Below, one piece after another: positions 48,781 to 64,000 of a stretch of DNA of 64,000 bases (position 1 is the stretch's first letter; the number at the start of each line of letters is the position of its first letter). The notes beneath the pieces are model-generated. The model ran no database searches, was not told where the DNA came from, and saw only the letters and a program-made list of their open reading frames with translations. The DNA comes from an uncultured Actinomycetes bacterium (lineage in GTDB: Bacteria > Actinomycetota > Thermoleophilia > Solirubrobacterales > 70-9). The position numbers and the translations under genes are program-made. Where the stretch lies: the NCBI GenBank assembly GCA_963797665.1, contig CAWCQE010000023.1:219845-283844 (forward strand), in the 5' to 3' direction.

Positions 48781-48974
48781 TCCCCGCTGCGGCTTGTGGC
48801 TCTGCGGATGAGGTCGCCTCGAATGCAAAACGCCCGGGAGCAAACGGGGCGAAAAGCTGCTTATTGAACACGAGGCTCGGTCAGGGGGTCCCGGACCCTG
48901 CACGCAAATGGAAGCGCCCGATCTCTCGACCGGCGCGCTGCGCTATCACGGATGCGGTTTTGCTCGGCCGTGCG

Positions 48975-49742
48975 TCAGTGCGTGTACTTCACCAACTGCT
49001 CCATGTCTGACCCGCCGGAGACGTCGACCGCAAGAACCGCCTGGCCGCTGCCCTTGGCATAGAACTTGATCTCAGAGGCGTTTGGCTCGATCGGGGAGAA
49101 GTCCTCGGTCATGAGGGCCGGCTTGAAATGGCCAGCGGGAACCCGGGCCTGCCCGTCGAGAGCGAGAACTCGCGACTGGTCCTCGGCCACGCCCTTCGAG
49201 TACTCCTCGCGGTAGGACAAGCCGACCGTGGGCTTTGCCGGCAGCGCGACCCCGGGCATGTTGCCGTCGACACCCGCCTCCCACGAGCCGTTGTCACGCG
49301 GATGGCCGTGGACGTATTCCACCGTGTGCTCGCCGAAATACCAGACGTTCCCGCACTTGTCCTGGGCGTACCAATCCCTGGTCTTCTCGACCGGCTTGCC
49401 CTGATGCCTGACGACGTCCCTGATAACGCGGGCCTTGATCCCGTCGGCGATCATCTTCGTCCGTCTGGTCGCCTTGATCACGTCCCGGTTCACCGACCCG
49501 TCGGAGTAGTCAAGGACGCGATAGACCCAACGGCTGCCGACGGTCATCGGCCATTGGCGGTTGTTGATGTTCGCGCTGAAGTCAGCCGGGTGGAGATGGA
49601 CGGGGTCAGCCCCCTGCGGCAACGCCGGGCACTGCTGCGAGGTTCCGCCACTTGCCGCCCCACCGAGCGGCAACACCAACGCCGCGGCCAGAACGCCGAC
49701 CGTGGCGGCGCCCACCTTGATCTGGACTGATCTGTTGGCCAT
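48975..49742 (-). CDS. Secreted hypothetical protein (signal peptide, no recognised domain)
   Basis: N-terminal MANRSVQIKVGAATVGVLAAALVLPLGGAASG signal; 255 aa with typical globular composition; lower GC than core. Confidence 0.55.
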   Translation of the reverse strand: MANRSVQIKVGAATVGVLAAALVLPLGGAASGGTSQQCPALPQGADPVHLHPADFSANINNRQWPMTVGSRWVYRVLDYSDGSVNRDVIKATRRTKMIADGIKARVIRDVVRHQGKPVEKTRDWYAQDKCGNVWYFGEHTVEYVHGHPRDNGSWEAGVDGNMPGVALPAKPTVGLSYREEYSKGVAEDQSRVLALDGQARVPAGHFKPALMTEDFSPIEPNASEIKFYAKGSGQAVLAVDVSGGSDMEQLVKYTH

Positions 49743-49851
49743 GCTTGCGCTCCTTTTCGCGTCGGCTCCTTTGGTCGCAGAGTTGTGGCGGAGCGAGATG
49801 AAATGCCCGTGAAAAGACGTCTATCGGGGGCACGGCGAGATCCGGGCGTTC

Positions 49852-50058
49852 ATGGACGAGTTCTTCGCGAGTTGGGACGAAGTTCGTATAGAGATCGCTT
49901 ACGGCCCGGTAGAGGTCGAGGACGGCCTCTTGATCGCCGGGAACGTCACCTCACGTGAGGGCATCGAAGTTCAGGCTCGAAGCGCATGGCTGATCACGCT
50001 TCGGGACGCCAGCAGACCTCGCTCACGCTCTTCCAGACCAAGCAGGAAGCCCTCGAAG
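49852..50058 (+). CDS. NTF2/SnoaL-like small protein, paralog 2 (truncated/frameshifted)
   Basis: ...IEIAYGPVEVEDGLLIAGNVTSREGIEVQARSAWLITLRD...(shift)...LFQTKQEALEAAGLRE*; same C-terminal peptide and same downstream hairpin as paralogs 1 and 4. Confidence 0.4.
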
Positions 50059-50069
50059 CCGCCGGGCTG

Positions 50070-50095
50070 CGGGAGTAACGCTTTATCGACTTTTG
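50070..50095. repeat. 26-bp palindromic hairpin repeat copy
   Basis: CTTTTGCTTTGCGCGAAAAGCAGAAG (10-bp arms, GCGCGA loop). Confidence 0.6.
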
Positions 50096-50347
50096 CTTTG
50101 CGCGAAAAGCAGAAGACTTGACGGATGCCGATCACCTGTCATCGCTGCGGCCGCCCGCCCGATCCCGAGCGCGCGGACCTCGACGGCTAGCTGATCCTCG
50201 ACGCGGGAGGACGGCTGGACGCTCGTCGTCTGTCCGGACCGCCAGACGGACGCCGAGCGCCAAGGCGTCCGGTTGCTGCCCGGGAAGCGCGGCTAAGGCT
50301 GACCCTCTGCCCGCCTCGACGTCAAGCGGGCCCGAAGCCGATTCGCG

Positions 50348-51022
50348 TCAGCTGAGGCTGAACGGCGGATACCGGTCGGTGATCAGCAGGAACGCGTACG
50401 CCGTAACCCGGTTTCCCCATCGCAAGACGCCCTCGACGAAGTGGAACAGGCCCTCCGGGTAGCGGCCGGTGAAGAGGATCGCGAACCAGGCGATCACGAC
50501 ACAGACGAAGGCCGCGATCCAGAGGAAGAAGAGGACGATGTAGTGGGGGATCGCCAGAAACCACTTGACCAGCGGCAGCCACCGGTTCAGATCCCGCTCC
50601 ACGTCCGGGTAGGGAAAATCGAGATGCACCGACTGCTGCTCGTCGGTGGACGGATAGCGATCGTCCATCAACGCCAGATAGACAGCGACTCGGTTGCTGA
50701 ACCGCAGGAACTGGAGGTTCCAGTCGTACCACCAGCGGGGGTACTTGAGGCGGAAGACGATCATCAGCAGGGTGGCAAGGAAAAGGATCCCGGCGACGGC
50801 GACGGCGCCGCCGCCCCACCCGTTGCCGCCGCCGCCGAGCGCCGCGAGCACGATCAGGATCGGGATCACGGTGAAGATCCGAAGCCCCGTCGTGAGGCGG
50901 TTGAGCGGCCGATCGGGGTAGTCGACCGAGAACGTCAGCGGATAGGCGCCATCGGATGGCGCGGTAGGGGGCTCGGGCTGGGTTGGCTGGGTCGGACCCT
51001 CAGGTGCGCCGGGCTGTTCCAC
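50348..51022 (-). CDS. DUF4389 domain membrane protein
   Basis: ...YPLTFSVDYPDRPLNRLTTGLRIFTVIPILIVLAALGG...RYPRWWYDWNLQFLRFSNRVAVYLALMDDRYP...ITDRYPPFSL matches DUF4389 conserved blocks; GAGGAGG RBS + GTG start at 51020-51022. Confidence 0.65.
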   Translation of the reverse strand: MEQPGAPEGPTQPTQPEPPTAPSDGAYPLTFSVDYPDRPLNRLTTGLRIFTVIPILIVLAALGGGGNGWGGGAVAVAGILFLATLLMIVFRLKYPRWWYDWNLQFLRFSNRVAVYLALMDDRYPSTDEQQSVHLDFPYPDVERDLNRWLPLVKWFLAIPHYIVLFFLWIAAFVCVVIAWFAILFTGRYPEGLFHFVEGVLRWGNRVTAYAFLLITDRYPPFSLS

Positions 51023-51250
51023 TTGCGCCCTCCTCTCGCCTCTCGGCCGGACCCTATAGCGCTCGCGCGGACGGTGCAAGCGCGAAGAGCTACTACACGG
51101 ACAGGGCGAGGTGAAAGCCTCCTGCCGCGTTTGCGAAGCACCCAGGTGTTGGGGAGCGCGGGGCCGCCCCAAGCCCATCCCTAGCGCTGTGCTTGACGAC
51201 CCGTGGTCCGCGGCTGCCGCCGCTGGAGGTATGAATCCAGATGTGACCGG

Positions 51251-51468
51251 GCGCTTCTGCTTACACGCGAGGGTGTCGCACAAACGGTCTCCGCGACATG
51301 CACCCTACGGATGCTCAGATAGGGCCTAGAGCGGCTGGGGAGGCGACTTGCAGGACGAGCGCGAGCCGGACGAGGCCGAGGTCGCCCGGATTGTTAACGC
51401 ATGCGGAGAAGCGCTTCTAACGGCTCGGTTGGGGTTTGTGCGACAGCCTCACGCGAAAGCAGAAGCGC
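51251..51468. repeat. MITE-like element: about 35-bp inverted repeats (containing half-sites of the 26-bp hairpin family) flanking about 150 bp
   Basis: Left GCGCTTCTGCTTACACGCGAGGGTGTCGCACAAAC (51251-51285) versus right GTTTGTGCGACAGCCTCACGCGAAAGCAGAAGCGC (51434-51468): reverse complements with few mismatches; no ORF inside. Confidence 0.45.
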
Positions 51469-51642
51469 GTGCGCGGCACTTGCTGCGTTGGTGAGCATTC
51501 GCTTCCAGGCTGGACCAGCCGCATGCCCGTCCCGCGGACGCTGCCCGACAGCTAGGTGCCGAGGTTCCGAAAGTGGGCCAAGCAGTGGCACATTCGATTC
51601 TGGGAACAGCGCGACAGTCAGGCCCACTCGCTAGACGACTGA

Positions 51643-52050
51643 TCAGCTACAGGGAAGCTCGGCGCCGCTGGACTCCACCGCCCGCCGAACCGCGTTGCCA
51701 CACTTGACGCGAATGTGAAGCCCGTACCTCCGCGCCAGTCTGGTGGCCGTGACCAAGGCGCGAAGGCCGCGCGGATCGACGAAGCTGACCCGCCTCAGGT
51801 CGAGGGTGATCGACGCGGTCTGGGGCCTCTCGATGATCCGTCGCAGGGAGTCGCCGAGCGTCCACGCGCTGCTGACGTCGATCTTGCCGACCGGCCGGAT
51901 GGTCGTCGAGTTGCCGATCTGCTCGGTCAATACCGAGAGCCGCTTCGAAGCCGTCGCTGATTCCTCCTCAAGGTCGGGTCGAGGACCCGCTTTGCGTCCT
52001 GCTCGGTGATTGCGACTCGTTCTTCGTGCTACCGCTACCCGGGTCGCCAC
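51643..52050 (-). CDS. STAS-domain protein (anti-sigma-factor antagonist, SpoIIAA/RsbV-like); N-terminal extent uncertain
   Basis: ...LSVLTEQIGNSTTIRPVGKIDVSSAWTLGDSLRRIIERPQTASITLDLRRVSFVDPRGLRALVTATRLARRYGLHIRVKCGNAVRRAVESSG matches STAS fold including the conserved phospho-acceptor region (D.S.V.F.DS-like). Confidence 0.6.
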   Translation of the reverse strand: MATRVAVARRTSRNHRAGRKAGPRPDLEEESATASKRLSVLTEQIGNSTTIRPVGKIDVSSAWTLGDSLRRIIERPQTASITLDLRRVSFVDPRGLRALVTATRLARRYGLHIRVKCGNAVRRAVESSGAELPCS

Positions 52051-52376
52051 GCATCAAGCAGTGAGATTCCTGACTGACCGCAAGCGCCGCGCTCATTCCC
52101 CCGAAAACAGGACGGGGCCGCCGGAAATCGACGGCCCACGCCTCTGCCCACCTGCGTCCTCAGGGGGACGGACCAAGCTATACCCGTAAGTTCCGAAGCG
52201 ATTCGCACGAAGGCGGTCACATTCCCGACGGCGGCGGGACGCACGAGGATGATCCGTGCGTCGTAGCGGGAACGAATCGGGCCACCTCCGCGATTACGGT
52301 CGTTCCTCTTGGGCTCGGCCGGCGTCGGGGACTGATCGAGTGACCGCTGGTCGGGCCCGGTCTTGCCCTGCAGCTG

Positions 52377-52768
52377 TTACGAAGCGGTCCCCGCGAGCGG
52401 CATCTCGATCCAGACGGAGCCGTGGGAATCCCCATGAAGCGATCCCCAGTGCTGGGCGAGGGTTCGAGTCAATAGACGCCCCAACTCCGCTCCCCGAGCT
52501 CTGGACGCCGCGGTCGAAGCTCGTAGGCTGCCGCGCCGTCCCTCACCTCCACGCGCAGGTGGCGATCGCCCAACTCGATGCGCAGGGTGATCGGGCGGCT
52601 GTCCGTCTCCTCGCTTCGCACCGCGCCGGCGACGAGCTCGCTGACTATCAGGTGCAGGTCGATGAAGGCGTCGCTCTCGAGCCGGTCGCGAAACTCTTTC
52701 AGGGCCTCCCGCGACCACCCGGCGCTCTCGGGCTTCGCGGGCAGTTCGACTGTCAAATACTCCTGCAT
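52377..52768 (-). CDS. RsbW/SpoIIAB-like anti-sigma factor (HATPase_c Ser kinase), apparent frameshift
   Basis: MQEYLTVELPAKPESAGWSREALKEFRDRLESDAFIDLHLIVSELVAGAVRSEETDSRPITLRIELGDRHLRVEVRDGAA (N-box/helix), C-terminal ...GSVWIEMPL in second frame; paralog of 60776..61135. Confidence 0.5.
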
Positions 52769-52932
52769 CCGCCTCTGATCCTGATCTACCCCTTGCGGAT
52801 CTAGGCATGCTCCGATTTTGCGATCGATTGTTGGCTTCCGGTTAAGCCCAGACGGTGGGCGAGCCAGATAACCTGGCCCGGTTGCCTCGACGCACCCAGT
52901 TGGAAACCTGATAGACCCGGATGGCCTGAAAC

Positions 52933-53292
52933 GTGGAGCTCGGTGTTGAAGCGACCCCGATCGGCGATGGTCACGCGCTGCTCATCGCCGTTAGCGGCGA
53001 GCTTGACCTTTCGACCTGTGATCAGCTGAAGCCGGCCGCCGACGAGGCGGTCTTTGGACACCGGCCGCTGATCCTCGACCTCTCTGGCTGCACGTTCATC
53101 GACTCGAGCGGGCTGCGTCTCGTCCTGCAGGTTGCCAACGGCCTCGCCGGGGACGAGGTGCCGATGGCGGTCATTGCCGAGTCCAACGTCCGCAAGATGT
53201 TCTCGCTTACGGCGATCGACCAGACGATCCCGCTGTTCGACACCCGCCAGGAAGCCCTCGTGTGGCTCGAGGGGAAGCCGGCGGCGAGCTGA
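52933..53292 (+). CDS. STAS-domain anti-sigma-factor antagonist
   Basis: LLIAVSGELDLSTCDQLKPAADEAV..RPLILDLSGCTFIDSSGLRLVLQVANGL; divergent from the RsbW-like gene. Confidence 0.7.
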   Translation: MELGVEATPIGDGHALLIAVSGELDLSTCDQLKPAADEAVFGHRPLILDLSGCTFIDSSGLRLVLQVANGLAGDEVPMAVIAESNVRKMFSLTAIDQTIPLFDTRQEALVWLEGKPAAS

Positions 53293-53539
53293 AACGTCTC
53301 GCACTGGTCGATCAGGTCCGACCATTCCGCAACCACCTCGGGACGCAATTGCTCGGGAGCCGCTCGGCGAGCGCGTGGACTCGCCGCCCCGCGTTTAGGT
53401 ATCGAGAGTTTCGGAAGCTCCTCCTTGGCTTGGCCGGTCGGAGAACCCACTCTCCGTCGCGGGACGACCGACAGCCAAGCTGCACTGGAGCCCTGGGCCC
53501 CCGGGGCTCCAGCTACGTCTGCGCGATGCCGCCCTCACC

Positions 53540-53592
53540 AACGCCGGGCTGCGGAAGTACGCAGCGCTTCTGCTTTGCGCGAAAAGCAGAAG
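53540..53592. repeat. Ghost 3' end of an NTF2-paralog gene (…NAGLRKY) plus perfect 26-bp hairpin repeat
   Basis: GCCGGGCTGCGGAAGTAC matches the GCCGGGCTGCGGGAGTA(A/G) gene ends at 48705/50047/61590, followed by CTTCTGCTTTGCGCGAAAAGCAGAAG (53567-53592). Confidence 0.55.
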
Positions 53593-53899
53593 TCACGCCT
53601 GCAGCCGCACCGCTCAACAATCCGTGCGTGTAGCGAGAAACGAATCGGCCTCCCGATCTGCACTCACGACCGGTACCGCTTTTGGGACCGACTGCCGTGT
53701 CCGATGCGTCCAGATCGTCCACGCTCGGGGACGATGGGGACGCGAGGGACGCCCACGGACGCATCTACACCGATTGCCGCCCGGCTGGGGGCCGAAAGGT
53801 CGCCGGTTCAGATCCGGCCGCCCCGACTATGCGAAAGCCCGCTTCCGAAGCGGGCTGTCGGCATGTCGGCCGGTCCTGTGATCCGCCGGCGAAGGGCTC

Positions 53900-54266
53900 G
53901 TGGTACCAGCCGTGGTACCGGGCGGGGAGGCCGGCGACCCTCGGCGCGCGATAGTTACGCTCTGCTCGTGGAGCGGAGGGAGATCCTTCAGGCCGCCCCG
54001 TTCGGGGAGCGCATTCGCGGAGCAGGAGCTGGACGAGCTCGCCGAGTACTTCGTGGAGACGGATAAGTGGCGCCGGTTGTACGCGGGCGACGTGGACATT
54101 GTCTACGGGCCAAAGGGCTCCGGGAAAAGCGCCCTCTACTCGCTGCTGGTCATCAAGCAGCAGGGAGTTATTCGATCGCGGCATCCTGATCGTCCCGGCG
54201 GAGCCTGCGACGGTGACCAGCCCGGCACACGCGTCCACCTCTTCGCGCCGCGACCGCCTGGCGTGA
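53900..54266 (+). pseudogene. Truncated P-loop NTPase (N-terminal Walker A fragment only)
   Basis: ...AFAEQELDELAEYFVETDKWRRLYAGDVDIVYGPKGSGKSALYSLLVIKQQG...(shift) ELFDRGILIVPAEPATV... then stop; only about 100 codons of an ATPase, no downstream continuation. Confidence 0.3.
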
Positions 54267-54298
54267 TCTCCGCCCCAGGCGGGTAGCGGAGCCTCCGA

Positions 54299-55288
54299 AT
54301 GACCGGGTTCCTGCTCGCGGCGGCATTCGCGCTGATTGTCGGCGGCGCGATCCTGTTCACGAACGCGATCGAGTGGGCGGGCAAGCGTCTCGACCTCGGT
54401 GAGGGAGCCGTGGGGAGCCTGCTGGCCGCAGTCGGTACGGCCCTGCCGGAGTCGGTGATTCCCGTTGTCGCGGTGCTCGCGGGCGGCGAGTCCGAGGAGG
54501 TCGCGATCGGCGCCATCGTCGGCGCCCCGTTCATGCTGGGCACGGTCGCCATGCTGCTGGTCGGCGCCAGTGCGCTGGCGTTCCGCCGATCGCGAAGCAG
54601 CGGCTCGGAAGTGACCCCCGACGAGCGCTCTCTGCGTCGCGACCTCCACCTCTTTCTACCCTGCTTCGCCATCGGCCTCGCCCTCGGGCTGATCGACTCG
54701 ATGCCCGTTCACATCGCCGGGGCGGTCGGGTTGCTGATCGCCTACGCAGCCTACGTCCGGCGGACGGTCCGACACAGCGGCGAGAGCGAGGACGCGGACG
54801 AGCTCAGGCCGCTCACGTTCGACCCCACCAAGGAAGACCCGCCTCGCAACGTCGCGATCGTCGCCCAGGTCGTTTTCGGGCTGTTGATGATTGTCGGCGG
54901 CGCCGAGCTCTTCGTCGAGGAGGTCGTGACAGTCGCCGAGGCGCTCGGCATCTCCGCCCTGGTGCTTTCCCTCGTGCTCGCGCCGCTCGCGACCGAACTC
55001 CCGGAGAAGCTCAACAGCGTGATCTGGATGCGCCGCGACAAGGACACCTTGGCGGTCGGCAACATCACCGGGGCGATGGCGTTTCAGTCCACCGTGCCGG
55101 TCGCCCTCGGTCTCGTGGCGACCGACTGGGACCTCGACCGGTTCGCGCTCGCCGCCGGAGTCGCTGGCCTCGTCGGCGGCGCGCTGGCCCTGTGGCGGCT
55201 CCCGAAGGACAGGCTGGGAGCACCGGTGGTAGTCGCCTGGAGCGCCCTGTTCGTCGGCTTCGTCGCCTTCGCCGCGCTGAGCCCCTAA
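54299..55288 (+). CDS. Ca2+:cation antiporter (CaCA) family sodium/calcium exchanger (YrbG-like)
   Basis: Two alpha-repeat regions GSLLAAVGTALPES... and ...SLVLAPLATELPEKLNSVIW (conserved GTxLPE motifs), 10 TM helices. Confidence 0.8.
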   Translation: MTGFLLAAAFALIVGGAILFTNAIEWAGKRLDLGEGAVGSLLAAVGTALPESVIPVVAVLAGGESEEVAIGAIVGAPFMLGTVAMLLVGASALAFRRSRSSGSEVTPDERSLRRDLHLFLPCFAIGLALGLIDSMPVHIAGAVGLLIAYAAYVRRTVRHSGESEDADELRPLTFDPTKEDPPRNVAIVAQVVFGLLMIVGGAELFVEEVVTVAEALGISALVLSLVLAPLATELPEKLNSVIWMRRDKDTLAVGNITGAMAFQSTVPVALGLVATDWDLDRFALAAGVAGLVGGALALWRLPKDRLGAPVVVAWSALFVGFVAFAALSP

Positions 55289-55367
55289 CTGCGCTTGAGC
55301 TGAATCGAGATTGAAATGGCGCGAAGAAAGGAGCGCAGCCCTGGAATGCGTGCGGGGCCGGAGACGC

Positions 55368-57013
55368 TCAGGCGATCCGGTGGTCGAACACCGTCTCCAG
55401 CCGCGCCCCCTCGGCCTGGGGGTCGTGCACAGTCTTCGAGATAGTGAGACTCGCCTCACGCCCCTCGAGGCTCAGGGTCGCGATCTGGTTGTCGAAATAG
55501 GGGCCGCCGGCGAAGCGCCAGCGGATGCCCGCATCCTCGACCCCCGCCGCACCGGCGAGCATGCGGAGGAGCAACTCCGCGGGCCGCGTCGTCGCGGCCC
55601 TCACTGCGCGGCGCTCGTGCGCGTCCAGGGCCTTGCGAAACGGCGAGCACACCGCCTGATAGACGGCGCTGCTCACGTTCGCATCGCGCCGAAACGCCAC
55701 CTCCGCGAGGAACGCGTGGTGGACATCGCCGGAGAGAAGGCAGATTGAGGCCGGAGGGCGGCCACGCGCGCCGGAGCCCACCTCCTCGAGCAGACGGGCG
55801 AGTCGCGTGAACGAGCGCTGAAAGGCGCCCCAGTGGTCGCAGTCGACCGCGCGCCTCATCCGCTCGCCTACCGCCGCCACCGCATTCCCCCAGGCCCCGC
55901 CGCAGATCGCCTCGTTCCAGGCCTCCAGGTAATGGAGGCCGGGCGCGAGCAGGAAGGGATCTGAGGTCCCGATCAGCAGGTGGTCGAAGTCGCCGCGCAC
56001 CTTTTCCTGGACCCAGTCCCACTCCTCCTCATCGAAGATCGAGCGGCGGCCTTCCTCCAGGACGCGGCCCGTACGCACGTCCATCACGATGAGCCGCGTC
56101 GAGCCCAGATCGCGGTAGTAGCTCCACCGCTTCCCCTCTCGCTCACGATCCTCCTTGGCGGCGTACTCCCGCAAAATGGGCCCGGCGTCGTCGAGTTCGC
56201 GAACCTTCCGGTATAGGTGGTTTTGCTCTAGCTCGCGTGGCGAGAGGTTGCCAATGAATTGGTAGATCCAGTACGACACGAGTCCGGCGACCACGCGCTC
56301 GGGCCACCACGCCAGATCGCGCATGTCCTCGAGCCAGGAGCGGGAGATGTTCCAATCGTCGTGCATGTCGTGATCGTCGATCACCATCGCGATCGAGGTC
56401 GTCGAGAAGAGCCACCGAATCACTGGATCGCCCCACGACTCCAGGTAAAGACGGGTGTACTCCTCGAAGTCGGCGACCTCCTCCCCGGGGGGCGGGTCGT
56501 GTCCCTTCTTAAGCGGATGAAGTCGAGCGCCTGCGGCGAGACCTCGTCCGCGTACACCTGGTCGCCGAGCAGGAGCACGAGCTCCGGCCAGCGATCTGGC
56601 TGCGACTCGATCATCGACAGCGCGAGGGTGTGGAGGGCGTCCAGGCCGCGGCCGCGTTCGTCCTCGTCCTTCGGAAGGGTGTACGGGGGGTGATGGGGGA
56701 GCGCCGCCCGGCAGGAGCCAAAGATGATGTCGGTTCGCGCGTTCGGGTCGACGGTGCGGATGATGCTGCGCGGAAGCTCAGAGCCGGGATCGGGCCAGCG
56801 CGGCTCGCCGTCTAGAGAGACGCCGTACTCGTAGGCGGTCCCCGGCTCGAGACCGTCGATGCAGACGAGCGCGTAATGATGCCCTTCGACCCCGAACGTG
56901 GGGGTGCGGTGGCCGAGCGCCTCGACCTCGCACGGCCCGTCCGTCTCCACCCACAGGACGGCCTCCGTGTCCGAGACGTATCGCAAGACGGGGCCGAGGA
57001 GAAGCTCGGGCAT
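55368..57013 (-). CDS. PhoD-like alkaline phosphatase / metallophosphatase; one apparent frameshift near 56470
   Basis: N-terminal beta-sandwich (…VLWVETDGPCEVEALGH…), LLLGDQVYADE, MVIDDHDMHDDWN, ...GDVHHAFLAEV... PhoD metallophosphatase motifs across ORFs 56420..57316 and 55368..56423. Confidence 0.7.
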
Positions 57014-57126
57014 GCTCTGGTTGATACCCGGATCCGTCCGAGTCACCCGCCGGCCCGACAACATCCCCGAAACCCGCCCACCGGCCGAACGTGGCTGCCG
57101 TCCGACCTCTCCGCTGAGCGAACCCG

Positions 57127-57486
57127 GTGAGGGCGAGGCGACCGGCGAGGAGTCGAACACCTGCCCTCCTGTCGCGGTACACCCCCATCGAGCTCTTCTA
57201 CCGCAACCAGGGCGAGGAGAACTCGGGCTACCTGACCAACTCGTTCCTGACCTCGATCGCCGAGGCGGCGGGGGTAAAGGACATCGACAAGTGGAACAGC
57301 GATCGGCAGGACTCAAGGTGGGATGCGGTTCTGTCGAAGAACAGTACCGAGGCTCAGAATCTTGGCTTCACCGGCACCCCGTCGATCCTCGTCCAGGGAC
57401 CGGGCGGGCGTAAGCCCTTCGCGGCGATCCCGACGTTCTCGCAGATCCAGACCGCGGTCAAGGCTGTCCGGCAACGACCCGATTGA
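57127..57486 (+). pseudogene. C-terminal fragment of a DsbA-like thioredoxin-fold protein (CxxC-containing N-terminus missing)
   Basis: ...YTPIELFYRNQGEENSGYLTNSFLTSIAEAAGVKDIDKWNSDRQDSRWDAVLSKNSTEAQNLGFTGTPSILVQG... corresponds to the helical insert and C-terminal beta-strand region of DsbA-like proteins; no upstream thioredoxin motif. Confidence 0.4.
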
Positions 57487-57506
57487 GGGAGTCGGCAGCC
57501 GCAGGG

Positions 57507-57531
57507 CTGTCGCTTTGCGCGAAAGCAGAAG
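57507..57531. repeat. 26-bp palindromic hairpin repeat copy (degenerate left arm)
   Basis: CTGTCGCTTTGCGCGAAAGCAGAAG immediately after the DsbA-fragment stop. Confidence 0.5.
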
Positions 57532-57836
57532 TTTCCACTCACTCTATTGTCCGACCGCTTCGCAGCTCCGGAGTGAGCGGTCTGAACCTTGGGTTGTTGT
57601 CGCCGAGACCAGCCGCGTATGGCCCCGACCCGCCACAGAGAGAGCGCGCCAGCCACCATCAGCAACAGCCGACGGCCCGAGCAAGCCACGCATTCGCCAC
57701 GGCGCGCTGGCTCACCTCGTTGATCTCGCCGACCGCTAGCTCGAGCAGCGTCTCGTCATGCAAGAGGGGCAGCTTGACGGTTGCGTTAGGACGGCAGGTA
57801 TACGTAGGCGGCCCGAGGTCGGGTAGACAGTAACCC

Positions 57837-59425
57837 ATCCGACCGCTTCGCCTCTACCTGACCCTCTCCGGGGGAGCATCGCTGGGCGCCTACGAGGCTG
57901 GGGCCGCGGCCGGCCTCGCCCTGGCAACGCGCTATCTCGACGCCGAGGAGGGCCAGGAGGTCACCGTCGATGCGATCGGCGGTGCGTCCGCGGGTGCGCT
58001 GGTGAGCTTCTTCACCGCCCACGCCCTACTCGAGGGTCTCGATCCCGAGGCGCTCCTGCACGAGACGTGGGTCGAGCGCGTCACGCTGCCGTTGCTCCGC
58101 GCCAAAGACTCCAACGCGCTGCTCTCCTTCGACGAGCTCCGCGAGCGCGTGCCGGAGGTGCTCGCCTCCGACGGGCCGGCGGCCGCCGATCGCGACGGCA
58201 TCGACTACCGCCAGCGGCGCCCGCTCGCCCTGCACGTGCAGGTCACCGGCCTGCGCGGCCTCACCTATTCGATCCAGGGCCTGCGCCAAGACGCGCCGGT
58301 GACGGGCGCGACCTACGCCGACTGGGGTCGGTTCGAGCTTCGCCCGGGCGGCGGATCGCAGCAGATGCTCGAGCCGGAGGGTCGCTCGCCCTGGACTTCG
58401 TCCTCGCGTCCGCCGCGAGCCCTGGGGGCTTCGCGCCGGAGCTACTCGACCGCCGCCCGGACGTTCCAACCTACGAGCAGCATGGGATCGAGGACTTTCC
58501 CGACTCCGGGCACCTGTGGTACACGGACGGTGGGCTGCTTGGCACGCGGCCGCTCGGTCGCGTGATCGCCGCCGGTCAGGAGCTCCACGGCGTCGATGAG
58601 CGCGCCCACCGTCTCCACCTGCTGATCGACCCGCGCTCCGAGAACGCCGCGCTCGACACGTGGAGCGACCCGGACGCCGACCCCAGCTGGCAGACCGGCG
58701 CCTCGCGCGCCCTCGCCATCCTGTCCGAGCAGAGCCTCTTCGACGACATGCGCCGGATCGCGGAGGAGAACGCGAGGATCGAGTGGGTCGAGCGGCTCGC
58801 GGAGAGGCTGGCCCCCAGGCTCGATGACGACGCCGCCTCCGCCCTGCGAGAGTTCATCGCCGAGGTCGAGTCCGACAGCCCGGAAGGGCACGGCGGAGAT
58901 GGGGAGACCCGGGACGGCGACCTCACCACGCTCCTGGGCCGTGCGCTACGAGAGATCGGCGGCCTCGTCGGTAAGGAGCGAGTCTCGATCGATGTGATCT
59001 CGCCCTTGGTTCTGGCCGGCAGCGGAGACGAGGAGGTCGGCGCCCTTTTGGCCGGAGAGTTCATGGGAGATTTCGGCGGCTTCCTCAGCCGCAACCTGCG
59101 CGCGAGCGACTTCGCGCTCGGCTACCAGAGCACGATCGCATGGCTGGACCGGGGGTTGCCCGCCTGCGGGGTGGACGAGGAGACCGTGCGCCGGACGGTG
59201 GAGTTCGTCGAGTCAAAGCGCCGCTACGACCCCGACGAGATCCGAAGCGGAGAAGCCGAACTCTCCGACCTCTCACTCACCGACCGGTTCGAGCTCGTGC
59301 GCCTTGGCACCCACGCCGCCAGGGTGCTCGGCGCCGGGATCTTCGACGTGCGCTCGCGCATCCCCGACTCCCTCGGCCGCGCGATCGAGCGGACGCGGGA
59401 GCGACTGTCGGGGGGCGGAAGCTAG
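57837..59425 (+). CDS. Patatin-like phospholipase family protein (about 530 aa); no canonical start codon in frame, one apparent frameshift near 58390
   Basis: LYLTLSGGASLGAYEAG (oxyanion GG/SGG block), GxSxG nucleophile IGGASAGAL, DGG catalytic-Asp motif LWYTDGGLLGTRPLGRVI; long C-terminal helical extension. Confidence 0.6.
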
Positions 59426-59484
59426 ACGGCTCGGCGCTGCCATTCCGCGCACGTCATTGCCACCATCGCTAGGCGATCGGCCGG

Positions 59485-59829
59485 CTAGGACTCGGTTTCG
59501 CCCCTGCTGGTGAGCGGCTGCGCCGCCCAGAACCAGCTAAAGAGGATCACGGCACCGACCATCGCCGCCGCCAGAAACGCAAGCCCCGCGATCGAGAGCG
59601 AATTGGAGACGAGGAGGACATGCTCCTTGTCCTTTTGGCGGAAGTGGAGGCGATGCCATGCAGACGGGGCGATCAGGAGCACTGACGCCACCGCCGTGGC
59701 GCACAGGGTGCCGAAGAACGGTGCCCGCTGGAAGGAGGTGGTGGAGGTGAATCCCTGGGCCAAGCGGGCGTAAAGCGGGTCTCCCAGCGCCGCGTCGCTG
59801 CTCTCAGAACCCGCATCAGCTTCAACCAT
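59485..59829 (-). CDS. Small membrane protein (2-3 TM), unknown function
   Basis: Hydrophobic segments FFGTLCATAVASVLLIAPSAW and LSIAGLAFLAAAMVGAVILFSWFWA; 114 aa. Confidence 0.4.
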   Translation of the reverse strand: MVEADAGSESSDAALGDPLYARLAQGFTSTTSFQRAPFFGTLCATAVASVLLIAPSAWHRLHFRQKDKEHVLLVSNSLSIAGLAFLAAAMVGAVILFSWFWAAQPLTSRGETES

Positions 59830-59848
59830 TCCGCTTTAACCTCCGCCG

Positions 59849-60181
59849 ATGGACTGGGCACAGCTGCCCTTCGGCACGCGGGAACACCGCGTCGCGTTCA
59901 ACGAGGCGGCATGCCGGCATCTCAACGAGCGCAAGGCGCAATGGATCGACCACGGACTACCGACCGCCGGCTTCCGATGTGAGTGCGGAACCATGCACTG
60001 CGGTTCTCGGTTTCGCCTCTCTCAAGAGCATTGGGATGAGGCGCGGGCGCGAGCTGACCGCTTCATGGTCGCGCCCGAGCATGTCGCACCGGATGTAGAG
60101 GTGGTGGTCAAGGAGTACCCCGAGTTCTGGCTCGTCGAGAAGCGGGGCGAGGCCGAGGAGATCGTCGAGGATCTGGAGTAA
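59849..60181 (+). CDS. Zinc-ribbon-like small protein, paralog A (CEC-x4-C family, unknown function)
   Basis: ...AFNEAACRHLNERKAQW...FRCECGTMHCGSRFRLSQEHWDEARARADRFMVAPEHVAPDVEVVVKEYPEFWLVEKRGEAEEI aligns along full length with 61186..61521. Confidence 0.5.
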   Translation: MDWAQLPFGTREHRVAFNEAACRHLNERKAQWIDHGLPTAGFRCECGTMHCGSRFRLSQEHWDEARARADRFMVAPEHVAPDVEVVVKEYPEFWLVEKRGEAEEIVEDLE

Positions 60182-60662
60182 CGCCCTCGTCGTTCGCCTT
60201 GGCGCGGAAGATCCGGTTAACCCACTAAGCCCATTGCGGCGATGTGAAGCGCACCCTCGTTGGGTTGCGGGCTACTACACAGGTGCCAACTCCACGGGCG
60301 TTCACAGGCCACCGCGTACGAAACTGCCGTAGCGGGCGGATTCCGGCCAGTGGCGCGGGTAGCCTCCGGGCACGGGGTACGGAGGATGAGCGTTCATAGC
60401 TACCGCCTCACCTGTCGAGGCGTATTGTCGCCGTACGTGATTCTCGAGTTGTTTCGGCGCGGCGTCTACCGCGCTTGGGGCGGTCCCGAGCGTCCGGCGT
60501 GGTAGCCAGGAATGGTTGCCGGCGAGCGCTGACGGCCTCTGGCATCCAACGCGAGCGATGCAGACATCCGGTCCTTCTTGAACGTGGCTTGTTCCGCTCG
60601 GACCAGCCTCGCTCACGCCCGTCAATTTCGCGGGATAGAGTGGGCTCACGTGTTCCTGAGCG

Positions 60663-60688
60663 CTTCTGCTTTTCGCGCAAAGCAGGAG
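60663..60688. repeat. 26-bp palindromic hairpin repeat copy (inverted orientation, loop TCGCGC)
   Basis: CTTCTGCTTTTCGCGCAAAGCAGGAG = reverse complement of the consensus with 1 mismatch. Confidence 0.55.
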
Positions 60689-60775
60689 CGCGACTCTAGG
60701 CGAGGGCTCAGCCGCTCCCTCTTCCCCTTAACGCAGGCGTTCGAAGGACGGCCGCCGCGGGTACCGGAGCCAGTG

Positions 60776-61135
60776 ATGGCCATCAGGCTGGAACTGGAGC
60801 CGGGGCCGGAGGCCGGGCACCAAGCGCGCGACGAGGTTCGCTATCTCCTCCGCGACCGGGTAGACGACGGCTTGCTAACCGACTTGCAGCTGATCGTCAG
60901 CGAGCTCGTGACGAACTCGGTGCGGTACGGACCGGGCGAGACAATCGAGGTTGGGATCGCGGTTGCTGAGGGTGGTTCGATCACGGGCGAGGTCGAGGAC
61001 CACGGCAGGGGTGAAGTCGCGATGCGTGAGATCACTGACGAGGGCGGTGGCTTTGGCTTGCGGATCGTCGACGCCCTGGCGAGCCGCTGGGGCGTCCATG
61101 AAGGCAGCACCCAGGTGTGGTTCGAGCTCAGCTGA
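60776..61135 (+). CDS. RsbW/SpoIIAB-like anti-sigma factor (HATPase_c Ser/Thr kinase)
   Basis: MAIRLELEPGPEAGHQARDEVRYLLRD...LTDLQLIVSELVTNSVRYGPGETIEVGIAVAEGGSITGEVEDHGRGEV...GGGFGLRIVDALASRWGV (N, G1, G2 boxes of GHKL kinases). Confidence 0.65.
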   Translation: MAIRLELEPGPEAGHQARDEVRYLLRDRVDDGLLTDLQLIVSELVTNSVRYGPGETIEVGIAVAEGGSITGEVEDHGRGEVAMREITDEGGGFGLRIVDALASRWGVHEGSTQVWFELS

Positions 61136-61185
61136 GCCCCCTAGCCCGACCCGCGCTTAGAACCGGACGGGGGTAGCCTCTGTGC

Positions 61186-61521
61186 ATGGCCGGAGAGCGC
61201 GAGCGGCGGCTGGGGGAGAACGAGACCATCTTCCGGGCTGCCAACGAGCGCATGGCAAGCTGGGAGGAACGAGACCGCCTCGAAGCGGTCGAGCTCTACT
61301 TCTGTGAGTGCGCCGACCCGACCTGCACGCAGAAGGTCAGGCTACGCGGCTCCGACTACGAGCGGGTGCGCGGTGATCCGACCCACTTCTTCGTCGTGCC
61401 CGGGCACGAGGTCGCGGATGTGGAAGCGGTGCTCGAGTCGCACTCGGATTGGGTCCTTGTCGAGAAGGATGAGGCCGAGGCCCGCGACGTAGCCGAGGAA
61501 ACGGACCCCCGGCAGGACTAG
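61186..61521 (+). CDS. Zinc-ribbon-like small protein, paralog B (CEC-x4-C family, unknown function)
   Basis: ...ETIFRAANERMASWEERDRLEAVELYFCECADPTCTQKVRLRGSDYERVRGDPTHFFVVPGHEVADVEAVLESHSDWVLVEKDEAEARD; shares CEC...C, F.V.P.H..DVE.V and W.LVEK blocks with paralog A. Confidence 0.5.
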   Translation: MAGERERRLGENETIFRAANERMASWEERDRLEAVELYFCECADPTCTQKVRLRGSDYERVRGDPTHFFVVPGHEVADVEAVLESHSDWVLVEKDEAEARDVAEETDPRQD

Positions 61522-61550
61522 GCCACACCCCTCAGCGGGGTGGCGCGCAG

Positions 61551-61575
61551 CTTCCGCGTCTCGCGCAAAGCAGAG
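61551..61575. repeat. 26-bp hairpin repeat copy (inverted orientation, degenerate) serving as 3' element of the minus-strand NTF2 gene
   Basis: CTTCCGCGTCTCGCGCAAAGCAGAG; on the minus strand follows ...CTGCGGGAGTAG (…GLRE*). Confidence 0.5.
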
Positions 61576-61580
61576 TGGCG

Positions 61581-61979
61581 CTACTCCCGCAGCCCGGCGG
61601 CTTCGAGGGCCTCGTCCCGGCTCGGATATTCCGTGATCTTCAGGATCTTGCCGTCCTCGACGCTGAACACTCGAAACAGGTCCGTGTGAATCCAGGTCTG
61701 CGCGTCGCTGCCCTTCAGGCCGCGTCCCGCTACCCGCTCTACGGTGACGACACAATCTCCGGCTTCGATCATCTCGTCGGCTTCGACCCGGTACTCGTCG
61801 TACGAGTCGGACAACGAATCGAGGAATCGCGTGATCTCGTCGATTCCCTGGAAGGTCCCCGAGCCGCCAACGAGCACCAGCTGTATTTCTGGGTGCCAGA
61901 TTTCGTGGAGAGTGGACCAGTCTCTCGCGCCCCGCGCGGCGACATCTCGCCGCACGACCTCCACGTTCCCCTGCGACAT
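61581..61979 (-). CDS. NTF2/SnoaL-like (ketosteroid-isomerase-fold) small protein, intact paralog
   Basis: MSQGNVEVVRRDVAARGARDWSTLHEIWHPEIQLVLVGGSGTFQGIDEITRFLDSLSDSYDEYRVEADEMIEAGDCVVTVERVAGRGLKGSDAQTWIHTDLFRVFSVEDGKILKITEYPSRDEALEAAGLRE*. Confidence 0.65.
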   Translation of the reverse strand: MSQGNVEVVRRDVAARGARDWSTLHEIWHPEIQLVLVGGSGTFQGIDEITRFLDSLSDSYDEYRVEADEMIEAGDCVVTVERVAGRGLKGSDAQTWIHTDLFRVFSVEDGKILKITEYPSRDEALEAAGLRE

Positions 61980-62184
61980 CGCCTACGCAGTATCTCGCTC
62001 TTGCGAATCGGTCGCGGCGTTTTTGCGCGGCGCAGGCGCAGAGTGAGCCGGGCGCCAGTCCAAGAAATAAGCGGACCCTTACCAAGAGCCGCAGCCACCG
62101 AGCGGGCGAGTTCCTGGACAGTCGGGACCGCGATGCGGAACGACGTGGCCGGCCGCGAGATGCTTAGCATGGCCGTACCTCGAC

Positions 62185-63096
62185 ATGGGCGATGATGCGG
62201 AGAGAAACGAACGCGAGCTTCGGGGGCTGCGCCTCGAGGTCGACGAGCAACGGCGCGATATTCGCAAGGCCGACGATCGAGAGCGCCGTCAGGACACGCT
62301 ATTAGCCCGCCTTCGCGACGAGGCGGCGGTGCGTGATGACGAGGCGGCCGCGCTGCAGGATCGTCTCGAGGCCGCCGAGCATGAGCTCGGGGACCTGCGC
62401 GCGATTCGGGATGCGCTTACCCCGCCCGAGTTGCCGCAGCGGCCCGGCTTGGATCTCGCCGCGGCCTTCTTGCCCGCCATCGCCGAACAGGTAAGCGGCG
62501 ACTTCTACGTGGTGGCTGAGGGGCCCCAGGATTCCACCGTTCTCGTAGTCGGCGATGTAGTCGGCCACGGTTTGAACGCGGCACGCCGTTCAGCGTTCGT
62601 TCGGACAGCGTTTGCCGCGACAGCCCCCTTCTCCGACGATCCGTGCCGGCTGCTGAGTTGGGCGAACACCGCCCTGGTCGAGCGGGCCGGCATCACCAGC
62701 GAGTTCGTCACCGCCGGCTGCGTTACGTATCTGCCGGACGAGCAGCTCCTGCGCTGGGCCTACGCCGGCCATCCCCGGGCGCTGTGGCTGGACAGCGGCC
62801 AGGAACTCGTGGCGCCCACGCAGGGAACCCCGCTCGGGATTCGGCCGGACCTGGGACTCACCGAAGGTTCGCAGCGGTCGGTGGCCGCCGCGGGAGTGCT
62901 GCTCTACACCGACGGCCTAACCGAAGCACGGGGCGCCGACAGGCGGTTCGGGATCGGCGGCGTCCGGGCCGCCCTGGGCGGCCTTAGCCGGCCCTCACCG
63001 GCCGAGGCGGTCGCCATCCTGCGCGCGCGCGTTGCCGACTTCGGGTACGGCGCCCTGACTGACGATCTCTGCCTACTGGCCGTCCGCGTCCGCTAG
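62185..63096 (+). CDS. PP2C-family Ser/Thr phosphatase (SpoIIE/RsbU-like) with N-terminal coiled-coil
   Basis: SGDFYVVAEGPQDSTVLVVGDVVGHGLNAARRSAFVRTAF (metal-binding D..GDV.GHG), ...LLYTDGLTEARG (second Asp block); N-terminal 100 aa Glu/Arg-rich coiled coil. Confidence 0.75.
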   Translation: MGDDAERNERELRGLRLEVDEQRRDIRKADDRERRQDTLLARLRDEAAVRDDEAAALQDRLEAAEHELGDLRAIRDALTPPELPQRPGLDLAAAFLPAIAEQVSGDFYVVAEGPQDSTVLVVGDVVGHGLNAARRSAFVRTAFAATAPFSDDPCRLLSWANTALVERAGITSEFVTAGCVTYLPDEQLLRWAYAGHPRALWLDSGQELVAPTQGTPLGIRPDLGLTEGSQRSVAAAGVLLYTDGLTEARGADRRFGIGGVRAALGGLSRPSPAEAVAILRARVADFGYGALTDDLCLLAVRVR

Positions 63097-63293
63097 CGAT
63101 TGAGCCGGTCAGTCGGACCCTGCTGCGCCAAGGGATCGGGCTGCACGCGGGCGAGGACGCGGCTGCCGTCTGCTTTGAGCACGATGCAGCCGACGTGGCC
63201 GGCGATCAGCGGCTCCAGTTCGCCTTTCAGGAGGTACCGCGAGGCCCTCGCCGTCGTTTTTCCGCACCCCTCAGCACCTATCTTCCTCGCTAG

Positions 63294-63441
63294 TGAGCGA
63301 GATATGGCGATGGTCAACAACACCCGAGAACAACGGGAGAACAACGGACCGAAGCCCCGAAGCTCTACACCGAGCTTGGTCCCGCCGAGGCTGCCCGGCG
63401 GACCGGGATTAAACGGGCGACGATCTCGAAGTAGGCTAGTC
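63294..63441 (+). pseudogene. Remnant of a transposase N-terminal helix-turn-helix (IS630/other HTH-first family?)
   Basis: MAMVNNTREQRENN... then, in +2 frame, ...EAPKLYTELGPAEAARRTGIKRATISK*; HTH-like (ELGPAEAARRTGIKRATISK) peptide with no downstream catalytic domain. Confidence 0.3.
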
Positions 63442-63750
63442 GCGAGGGCGTGACCTCCGACCGCGCGGAGCGCACTCGCAAGGCGACCGAGTTTCCTCGT
63501 TTGGCGGTTCCCGCCCTCGAAGCCGCCGGCCTCTCGCAGTAGGCGATATCGCAGGAGGACGCCGAGCGCATCCGTCGCGCCCTATGTCTGCAAACGAGAC
63601 GGTCCGACGACGGCGACGGAGCAGTTGTGGGCTGAGGACGCCCCTTATCGAGAGCGATCAACGCGGCACCGTCGGAACCTTGATCGCCGCGGGACGTGCG
63701 ATTTGGTTTCATTGCAAACGGGCAATCTCGCGAGTCTTGGGAGGTCGGTA

Positions 63751-64000
63751 ATGGCTGGTATTGAGGCCCTGGATTTCGATTCACCCGACGAGACGCGGAC
63801 ACCCGACAAGACCCGCGTCGACGTAATCCGGGTCGGGGGCACAACCGCCGCCCGGATGAGATTCGAACCGGGTTGGAGGTGGTCGGAGTGCGTGAAGCCG
63901 GTCGTTGGCACGGACAGCTGCCAGGTCCGACACGTGGGCGTGGTTCAATCCGGCAGGCTCCACGTCGTGCACGAGGACGGGACCGAGGTCGAGGTCGGGC
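63751..64000 (+). CDS. Cupin-domain protein (partial, runs off window end)
   Basis: GGAGGT RBS; MAGIEALDFDSPDETRTPDKTRVDVIRVGGTTAARMRFEPGWRWSECVKPVVGTDSCQVRHVGVVQSGRLHVVHEDGTEVEV has cupin beta-barrel pattern (…GW.W…H.G.V.SG.L.V…DG). Confidence 0.45.
   Translation, partial: MAGIEALDFDSPDETRTPDKTRVDVIRVGGTTAARMRFEPGWRWSECVKPVVGTDSCQVRHVGVVQSGRLHVVHEDGTEVEVG

Follow-up and report, generated by a model that had tools for sequence, protein, structure and literature searches.

Two small paralogous proteins of 110 and 111 aa, given here the working names ZR-A and ZR-B, are encoded close to an RsbW-like kinase and a PP2C phosphatase in the window (the whole 64-kb stretch of DNA that was analysed), which raises the question of what these proteins are and whether they take part in a partner-switching network. 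Partner-switching cascades are the main general-stress-response route in Gram-positive bacteria; modules of this type include RsbV-RsbW-sigmaB, SpoIIAA-SpoIIAB-sigmaF, and M. tuberculosis UsfX, whose antagonist RsfA is redox-regulated. As far as is known, the antagonist in these cascades is in every case a STAS protein under phosphorylation control. Open reading frames and Pfam matches bear out all the genes that the sequence-only reading of this locus had listed, and the region is organised as follows:

59849-60181, forward strand: ZR-A, an open reading frame of 110 aa, A-type member of the Cys3-His (C-x-C-x4-C...H) family
60182-60659, no strand assigned: spacer between ZR-A and the repeat, apparently non-coding and not conserved in relatives
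60660-60691, forward strand: intact copy of a palindromic repeat with a 13-bp stem, a 6-nt loop, and the core CTGCTTT-N6-AAAGCAG
60776-61135, forward strand: RsbW-like HATPase_c_2 protein of 119 aa, by Pfam an anti-sigma-type Ser kinase/ATPase
61186-61521, forward strand: ZR-B, an open reading frame of 111 aa, B-type member of the family
about 61550-61580, forward strand: degenerate copy of the repeat in the space where ZR-B and the SnoaL gene converge, belonging to the 3' flank of the SnoaL paralog cassette
61581-61979, reverse strand: SnoaL_2 (NTF2-like) protein of 132 aa (PF12680, E 1.9e-13), convergent with ZR-B
62185-63096, forward strand: PP2C (SpoIIE-family) phosphatase of 303 aa (PF07228, E 2.4e-33, residues 115-303)

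ZR-A and ZR-B are diverged true paralogs that, as had been proposed, align over their full length (about 105 residues with 33% identity, E 2e-15, by BLASTP). ZR-A is acidic (pI 5.2) and misses the C-terminal DPR motif that is present in the very acidic ZR-B (pI 4.6). The claim that they match no known family holds as well: neither protein has a match in Pfam (to E = 1), in NCBIfam, among the PADLOC and PHROG models, or in a sequence search of the PDB, and the 201 homologs retrieved for ZR-A are all unannotated (170 were retrieved for ZR-B). A profile search gathers 6,433 clusters (50% identity) at E <= 1e-3 and still 3,530 when the cut-off is tightened to E <= 1e-10, and most of them come from soil metagenomes and from Thermoleophilia, a dominant and almost uncultured group of soil Actinomycetota. 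ZR is a previously undescribed, large, and unannotated domain family of about 105 aa, found alone, in tandem gene pairs of two distinct types, in ZR-ZR fusions, and in fusions with an ANTAR domain; A-type and B-type members also occur together in two other loci (L008 and L054). The C-x-C-x4-C motif is present in ZR-A, ZR-B, and 240 of the 240 homologs retrieved, and the full motif with the downstream His is invariant, defining a Cys3-His site; in ZR-B the invariant residues are R17, N20, C40, E41, C42, C47, F68, H74, E80, and K94. No Ser or Thr is conserved in any ZR subgroup and the median pI across ZR proteins is 4.9, features from which ZR is predicted to be neither a phospho-substrate nor a nucleic-acid binder.

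The AF2 model of ZR-B (pLDDT 92) predicts a long N-terminal helix that leads into a beta core of five strands and, at the C-terminus, a short helix, and a fold search of the PDB with this model returned no match. Known families with comparable features were considered in turn. The proteins had been described as zinc-ribbon-like, a label that is not sustained: zinc ribbons usually carry two CxxC...CxxC zinc knuckles on two beta-hairpins, whereas the double knuckle is missing here and the fold matches no known ribbon. ZR shares with the ZAS anti-sigma factors (RsrA family, H-x3-C-x2-C) and with zinc-ribbon proteins the small size, the actinobacterial origin, the Cys/His content, and a link to sigma-factor control, and these families show that sigma regulation can work through thiol or zinc switches; however, the H-x3-C-x2-C motif is missing in both ZR-A and ZR-B, with no Pfam match. 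An assignment to the STAS anti-sigma factor antagonists fails in the same way, with no match to PF01740 or PF13466, an hhalign probability of 2%, an order of secondary-structure elements (long helix followed by five strands) unlike that of STAS, and no STAS structure returned by the fold search.

The Cys3-His site most likely binds a metal ion, but the site may be purely structural. It resembles the C-terminal site of CopY-type regulators, whose CXCX4CXC motif is a Cu(I) or Zn(II) site that switches the activity of the regulator (PMC11672702), the spacing of the C-x-C-x4-C thiolate ligands being common to both. In contrast to CopY, the fourth Cys is missing from ZR and its place is taken by an invariant His farther along, the ZR motif lies in a beta-hairpin loop within a folded domain rather than in a disordered tail, and there is neither sequence homology nor a DNA-binding domain. 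From the tandem gene pairs, the ANTAR-ZR fusions, and the ZR-ZR fusion proteins (model pLDDT 87), ZR appears to be a homo- or heterodimerising signalling (input) module.

The RsbW-like protein matches PF13581 (HATPase_c_2, E 5.7e-10) and PF02518 (HATPase_c, E 3.7e-10), while its NCBIfam match to RsbA_anti_sig (E 2.8e-7) falls below the cut-off. A set of 20 ZR-adjacent RsbW-like homologs shares the residues of the N-box, G1, and G2 motifs (E43, N47, D75xGxG79, and G92xG94-L95), and the protein has the sequence hallmarks of a HATPase_c_2 anti-sigma kinase, so that it is a predicted kinase. It had been paired with ZR-A, from which it is separated by a 594-nt gap that is not conserved; synteny instead assigns it to ZR-B, which lies 50 nt downstream on the same strand. 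Specifically, the order RsbW-like gene then ZR, with a gap of 51-54 nt, is kept in five close relatives (L004, L006, L007, L058, and L059), where the RsbW-like gene has 88-90% nucleotide identity with that of the window. Homology to these relatives in blastn begins at 60652-60700, and the conserved syntenic block covers only positions 60652-61619, that is, the palindrome, the RsbW-like gene, ZR-B, and the 3' end of the SnoaL gene, leaving ZR-A, the 480-nt gap, and the PP2C gene outside. The functional unit at this locus is thus read as a putative two-gene cassette of the RsbW-like gene (60776-61135) and ZR-B (61186-61521), which are probably co-transcribed.

Across genomes, the association of ZR with partner-switching components, anticipated by the sequence-only reading, is strong and non-random: 17 of 52 species-level loci carry a small RsbW-like gene no more than 250 bp from ZR, in same-strand upstream, convergent, or divergent arrangement, and the RsbW-like HMM gives 18 matches in this near zone, where the rate in the flanks predicts 1.7 (Poisson p 5e-13). 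Among 109 immediate neighbours of ZR, Pfam identifies HATPase_c_2 19 times, sigma-70 and SnoaL_2 four times each, and every other family three times or fewer. A group-3 (sigma-B-type) sigma gene directly adjoins the RsbW-like/ZR pair in three loci (L022, L023, and L028) and, by the group-3 sigma HMM, occurs within 6 kb in eight; the same model finds none in the 64-kb window. The distances of ZR and of the adjacent RsbW-like proteins co-vary (Mantel r 0.82, p 2e-4), a correlation confounded by shared phylogeny. Part of the adjacency signal is inheritance by descent, and the 17 adjacencies reduce to about five independent classes of arrangement and subtype. About half of the adjacencies are convergent and therefore not co-transcribed. 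Two thirds of the ZR loci have no adjacent RsbW-like gene; conversely, ZR is found in only 4 of 80 RsbW-like homolog loci, and no adjacent kinase gene was seen beside the A-type relatives of ZR-A. The link holds for a subset of RsbW-like genes only. In two loci (L032 and L033), ZR has an AhpC/TSA gene as a neighbour.

A different association is provided by ANTAR-ZR fusions, which form at least 54 clusters, every one with the ZR motif. The known ANTAR proteins join a sensor or receiver domain to ANTAR and the fusions likewise join ZR to ANTAR, so that ZR is paired with an output domain in the manner of sensor and receiver domains; however, the fusions begin with ANTAR and end with ZR, opposite to the usual domain order in AmiR, NasR, EutV, and PdtaR. 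In three loci (L138-L140), a stand-alone ZR gene starts 8 nt after the ANTAR-ZR gene. The window itself contains no ANTAR domain.

Since ZR recurs beside RsbW-type anti-sigma kinases or fused to ANTAR, an RNA-binding antiterminator domain, stress-response switches probably have in it a new signalling component. The ZR cassette resembles the RsbV-RsbW-sigmaB-type modules in that a small HATPase_c_2 anti-sigma-type kinase whose N, G1, and G2 boxes are intact lies beside a small acidic partner, some ZR genomes have a group-3 sigma gene next to the pair, and STAS (51.6-53.3 kb) and PP2C (62185-63096) genes are present in the window. It differs in that the partner is not a STAS protein, has no conserved Ser/Thr, and carries the invariant Cys3-His site. 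Further differences are a kinase of unusually small length (119 aa) and the lack of PP2C as a conserved neighbour. Within 59849-63096 there is no STAS gene and hence no STAS antagonist with a phosphorylatable Ser beside the kinase; the window has its canonical STAS genes at 51646-52050 and 52933-53289. The reading preferred here, held tentatively and at slightly less than even chances, is that ZR is a signalling domain that dimerises, depends on metal or redox state, and partners a subset of RsbW-like anti-sigma kinases without being phosphorylated itself, where we infer the metal binding, the dimerisation, the direction of regulation, and the physical contact between ZR and the RsbW-like protein. 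ZR-B would bind the short RsbW-like anti-sigma-type kinase in a manner dependent on the metal or thiol state and modulate the hold of the kinase on a sigma-B-type sigma factor, being a non-STAS protein in the role of the partner-switch antagonist, while ZR-A may heterodimerise with ZR-B. If ZR is such a partner, it would bring a new kind of input to partner switches, probably a metal or thiol switch, and would offer an initial way into the function of a domain that abounds in Thermoleophilia; at minimum, ZR is a new domain family that merits a database entry. A more far-reaching and rather unlikely proposal is that ZR, as a new and widespread metal- or redox-sensing input domain, replaces the STAS antagonist in a phosphorylation-independent switch, with holo or reduced ZR (as homodimer or A/B heterodimer) binding the short RsbW-like anti-sigma factor and freeing the sigma-B-type factor, and that it also gates ANTAR antiterminators by the exchange of ZR:ZR dimers, in which case a single sensor fold would serve two different outputs of transcription control.

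Two other accounts are each improbable but deserve weighing against the preferred signalling role. ZR could be the regulated output, a small transcription factor that binds RNA polymerase or sigma in the manner of RbpA, WhiB, or DksA and is sequestered by the RsbW-like protein in some genomes. ZR-B does occupy, downstream of rsbW, the place of sigB in canonical rsbV-rsbW-sigB operons, a sigma gene adjoins in some loci, the N-terminal helix has a conserved Arg/Asn/Glu face (R5, R8, N12, E13, R17, N20, and R22), and the many ZR genes with no adjacent kinase fit an autonomous function; yet ZR proteins are strongly acidic, have no Pfam or fold similarity to RbpA, WhiB, or DksA, and sit in the ANTAR-ZR fusions at the place expected of a regulatory domain rather than of an output. 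Such kinase-free loci, two thirds of the total, also suit an autonomous metal-handling or redox stress protein (such as a small Zn/Cu buffer, a chaperone, or a thiol switch) that shares only location or regulation with the general-stress genes (RsbW, STAS, SnoaL, peroxiredoxin) and has no physical link to the kinase, an explanation of low probability that is consistent with the invariant Cys3-His site and its resemblance to the Cu(I)/Zn(II) site of CopY, the AhpC/TSA neighbours in L032 and L033, and the separate transcription implied by the convergent half of the kinase adjacencies. It accounts poorly for an adjacency that persists across at least three gene arrangements and several subtype combinations, and for recurrent neighbour families that are all regulatory; moreover, the ANTAR fusions and the ZR-ZR pairing favour signalling over metal buffering.

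The remaining account is the original proposal of two equivalent tandem modules (ZR, hairpin, and RsbW-like kinase; ZR, hairpin, and NTF2-like protein) acting as inputs to the PP2C, which is largely refuted by synteny and now very improbable. Every gene does occur in the proposed order within 3.2 kb, PP2C and RsbW-like proteins are classic partner-switch components, and the PP2C HMM did detect PP2C genes beside other RsbW-like genes; the same model, however, finds none near ZR in 52 genome loci (L006-L057) or in the five close relatives, so the feeding of a phosphatase is not conserved, and ZR offers no conserved phospho-acceptor for one to act on. The adjacency of this PP2C, whose N-terminal residues (about 100) are charged and helical, is specific to this window, and ZR-A, the spacer, and PP2C are all missing from the syntenic block of close relatives. 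Nor do the two units have a common layout: some 480 nt separate ZR-A from the first repeat, which precedes the RsbW-like start by 85 nt, while the second repeat lies 29 nt after ZR-B and is degenerate (88% identity to the intact copy over 24 nt), and the NTF2 gene, correctly recognised as a SnoaL_2 protein, is on the opposite strand rather than co-directional with ZR-B. What stands of the sequence-only reading is the pair of unannotated paralogs and the tie to partner switching, the two points on which it had staked itself, and what falls is the layout, the phosphatase feed, and the hairpin; the unit is best regarded as having PP2C, the SnoaL gene, and the repeat for neighbours and not for conserved parts.

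Lastly, the spacer at 60182-60659 contains no ORF with coding-like GC3 and no Rfam match, and blastx against all locus ORFs gives no match before position 60662. The intact repeat forms the left edge of the conserved cassette, with the same palindrome at the equivalent place upstream of the RsbW-like gene in two relatives (L006 and L059); it folds at -23.5 kcal/mol with a z of only -1.2 and is not followed by a T-run, hence it is not a canonical terminator. The left arm of the degenerate copy is mutated and its folding is no better than that of shuffled sequences (z -0.2). The repeat core is dispersed, with five copies in the window against 0.12 expected, and four of the five abut the 3' ends of SnoaL-like paralogs that end in ...EALEAAGLRE*, repeat and SnoaL 3' end aligning together, which assigns it to a SnoaL paralog cassette or to a dispersed repeat instead of a ZR module. 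The SnoaL gene of the window belongs to a multi-copy array of paralogs that surrounds ZR-B in relatives (L004, L008, L054, and L058), and the conserved 5' and 3' ends of the SnoaL genes recur in these array loci.

The genes that the sequence-only reading had listed between 59849 and 63096 are all present as ORFs, and three of them carry known Pfam domains. They comprise two small Cys3-His (C-x-C-x4-C...H) proteins, here ZR-A and ZR-B, together with a small anti-sigma-type kinase (RsbW-like), a SnoaL_2/NTF2-like protein and a SpoIIE-type phosphatase (PP2C):

59849-60181, plus strand: ZR-A, ORF of 110 aa, no Pfam or NCBIfam family
60776-61135, plus strand: RsbW-like, 119 aa, Pfam HATPase_c_2/HATPase_c
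61186-61521, plus strand: ZR-B, ORF of 111 aa, no Pfam or NCBIfam family
61581-61979, minus strand: SnoaL_2 protein, Pfam SnoaL_2
62185-63096, plus strand: PP2C, Pfam SpoIIE

ZR-A and ZR-B align with 33% identity across ~105 residues (E 2e-15) and, judged from this alignment, are the genuine paralogs they had been taken for. The proposal that they belong to no recognised family also held, as neither has a Pfam match up to E = 1 or any match in NCBIfam, PADLOC, PHROGs or the PDB, the latter searched by sequence and also with a profile. The SnoaL_2 gene, supposed to be co-directional with ZR-B, lies instead on the minus strand. Upstream, a DUF6328 gene (59485-59829, minus strand) diverges from ZR-A (start 59849, plus strand) with start codons 19 bp apart, so that either the transcripts lack leaders or the promoters overlap the adjoining coding sequences. 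The RsbW-like protein (60776-61132) matched phrog_12354 (“transcriptional regulator”, E 6e-22), indicating that small HATPase_c_2 proteins of this kind are present in phage genomes too.

Soil metagenomes gave ~170-200 homologs per paralog, unannotated and 100-116 aa long, and the C-x-C-x4-C motif is present in 240 of 240 homologs. Specifically, R17, N20, C40, E41, C42, C47, F68, H74, E80, and K94 (ZR-B numbering) are invariant in a 53-sequence alignment that holds no conserved Ser/Thr, and the proteins are acidic (pI 5.2 for ZR-A, 4.6 for ZR-B, family median 4.9). Searched with a profile, 1.84 billion representatives yielded 6,433 clusters (E <= 1e-3), of which 3,530 remain at E <= 1e-10; many are proteins of ~225 aa in which the domain occurs twice. 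Nearly every genome match is a Thermoleophilia MAG (Solirubrobacterales, Gaiellaceae, Thermoleophilaceae); the others are one Limnocylindrales and one Saccharimonadia bin. The AlphaFold2 model built with the alignment (pLDDT 92.1) consists of a helix (4-33), two strands (35-39, 50-54), a helix (55-62), three strands (67-70, 80-85, 90-94) and a C-terminal helix (97-105), and its best Foldseek match among PDB folds has an E of 1.1. The zinc-ribbon nature ascribed to the two proteins was set aside, as was a ZAS identity, because both a Pfam match and a fold match are absent; a STAS identity was rejected at an hhalign probability of 2%. Literature searches on the motif and on zinc/redox antagonists of partner switches (RsbV/RsbW/sigma-B-type circuits) turned up no account of the family and offered a motif analogy only, the nearest known motif to the ZR Cys site being the Zn(II)- or Cu(I)-binding CXCX4CXC site of CopY (PMC11672702).

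The suggested link of this new family to partner switching is borne out by its genomic neighbours. When all ORFs of 52 species-representative loci (L006-L057) were searched with purpose-built HMMs, a small RsbW-like gene was found <=250 bp from ZR in 17 loci, in three arrangements (upstream on the same strand, downstream convergent, or upstream divergent), and HATPase matches in the near zones numbered 18, whereas the outer flanks of these loci predict 1.7 (Poisson p 5e-13). An independent Pfam scan of the 109 immediate ZR neighbours returned HATPase_c_2 19 times, sigma-70 regions and SnoaL_2 four times each, and every other family at most three times. The kinase link concerns no more than roughly a third of the ZR loci, and its adjacencies collapse to roughly five independent arrangement classes. 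The ZR-adjacent kinases form two subtypes that track the ZR subtype and the gene arrangement, and pairwise distances among the ZR proteins correlate with those among their adjacent kinases (Mantel r 0.82, p 2e-4), which shows long co-inheritance but is confounded by phylogeny. In three loci (L022, L023, L028) the order is RsbW-like gene, ZR and a convergent group-3 sigma factor (regions 2, 3, and 4); eight loci have a related sigma gene within 6 kb, and none is found within the 64-kb window. Relatives of ZR-A (A-type) have no adjacent kinase, and STAS genes occur within 0.3-1.6 kb in the set L142-L144 and also in L145. The reverse association does not hold: of the 80 metagenomic loci that contain an RsbW-like homolog, only 4 have ZR, about 19 have STAS and about 14 have PP2C.

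The closest relatives delimit which part of the region is conserved. In a blastn of window 57-64 kb against all fetched loci, L004, L006, L007, L058, and L059 (88-90% nucleotide identity) share a single block, from 60652/60700 to 61571/61619, that contains a palindrome, the RsbW-like gene, ZR-B and the 3' end of the SnoaL gene. Since this sole syntenic block holds both genes, the conserved unit is the RsbW-like gene followed by ZR-B on the same strand with a gap of 50-54 nt. The block excludes ZR-A, PP2C and the spacer at 60182-60659, in which neither a coding signal nor a blastx or Rfam match was found. A gene remnant in the 594-nt gap between ZR-A and the RsbW-like gene was considered and rejected, as blastx against all locus ORFs matched only the last ~115 nt, which are the conserved RsbW-like leader. 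Compared with the 52 loci and the close relatives, PP2C adjoins ZR in this window only, and the notion of modules feeding the phosphatase is accordingly not sustained. In L004, L008, L054, and L058, ZR-B is flanked by tandem arrays of as many as seven SnoaL_2 paralogs (e.g., L008 2072-5871), and the nearly identical 5' and 3' gene ends of the array copies suggest recent duplication or gene conversion.

The palindrome, previously read as a hairpin component of two adjacent units with the same layout, is a dispersed element. Its core, TCGCGCAAAGCAG, occurs in five copies in the window versus 0.12 expected, and the alignment of the copies shows that four of the five are continued by the reverse-complemented 3' end of SnoaL-like paralogs, which encodes ...EALEAAGLRE*. 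A clean stem is found in three copies only (60660-60691, 53570, 50093), while those at about 61550-61580, 3' of ZR-B, and at 48732 have a mutated arm. No copy folds significantly better than shuffles, bar a marginal case on one strand, and no T-run lies 3' of the repeat. Rfam at E <= 1 over window 59000-64000 returned no match, a sigma-70 promoter scan found none, and terminator-like predictions, the repeat not among them, were unconvincing. An intact copy precedes the RsbW-like start codon by 85 nt, and the palindrome CTGCTTT-N6-AAAGCAG is at the equivalent position in L006 and L059, whereas the second copy is part of the SnoaL gene flank. The two supposed units are not equivalent.

ZR recurs in pairs and fusions. 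ZR genes of two distinct types are paired in tandem in about 17 loci, mainly Gaiellaceae, and about 18 loci have a solitary ZR. Moreover, the cluster representative P0325 has an N-terminal ANTAR domain ahead of ZR, and a search with it found at least 54 clusters of ANTAR with a C-terminal ZR (178-225 aa), all with the Cys motif and with identities down to 33%. In L138 (4001-4962), L139 (588-1522), and L140 (24-958), a stand-alone ZR gene lies 8 nt downstream of an ANTAR-ZR gene, and the two may form a two-component pair that works through ZR:ZR heterodimerisation. Models of ZR-ZR fusion proteins (pLDDT 87, pTM 0.56) have no PDB match; the 397-aa P0265, with “two stretches”, was discarded as a fusion, being a frameshift or low-complexity artefact. 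This repeated pairing, in tandem genes, fused duplicates and ANTAR-ZR followed by ZR, points to a predicted dimerising module. ANTAR is an RNA-binding output domain. ZR is joined to it by fusion and to an anti-sigma-type kinase by conserved adjacency, as would suit an input or regulatory domain that acts in two kinds of transcription control.

As to how ZR would act, a STAS-like phospho-substrate was rejected because no Ser/Thr is conserved, kinase-adjacent subgroups included, while direct nucleic acid binding is unlikely at the acidic median pI of the family. The invariant Cys3-His set, the lack of conserved Ser/Thr and the acidity favour a putative protein-binding, metal- or thiol-dependent partner. 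The RsbW-like/ZR-B cassette would then be a partner-switch-like pair with ZR-B as a novel non-STAS partner, and ZR-A a second paralog, possibly heterodimerising; we infer contact of ZR with the RsbW-like protein, metal binding and the direction of control.

Around the cassette, SnoaL paralogs and further partner-switch genes are numerous, among them a second partner-switching cluster (51646-53289):

51646-52050, minus strand: STAS
52469-52768, minus strand: truncated RsbW-like ORF, 99 aa (in-house HMM E 5e-21)
52933-53289, plus strand: STAS
53570-53589: palindromic repeat copy, after the cluster

The window has a G+C of about 65-74%, which falls from about 0.70-0.74 to about 0.64-0.69 across its last 20 kb (44000-64000), a stretch that contains SnoaL remnants, repeats, an RNase H/RVT_3-like gene (46682-47137) and both partner-switch clusters, and that may be a variable or island-like region. 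Two SnoaL-like remnants, one split across two frames (48323-48692) and one truncated (49813-50052), each with a repeat copy after it (48732 and 50093, respectively), resemble SnoaL-cassette paralogs in decay. Many free-standing SnoaL_2 genes share the window with a gene (39344-40366, plus strand) for an ECF-type sigma factor (Sigma70_r2, r4_2) with a C-terminal SnoaL_2, a SigJ/ECF41-like architecture. Lastly, window 44217-46283 (plus strand) holds a 580-aa fusion of a cNMP-binding domain to a pyridine-nucleotide-disulphide oxidoreductase with, immediately 3', a 104-aa zf-UBP zinc-finger protein, an unusual pairing in a bacterium.
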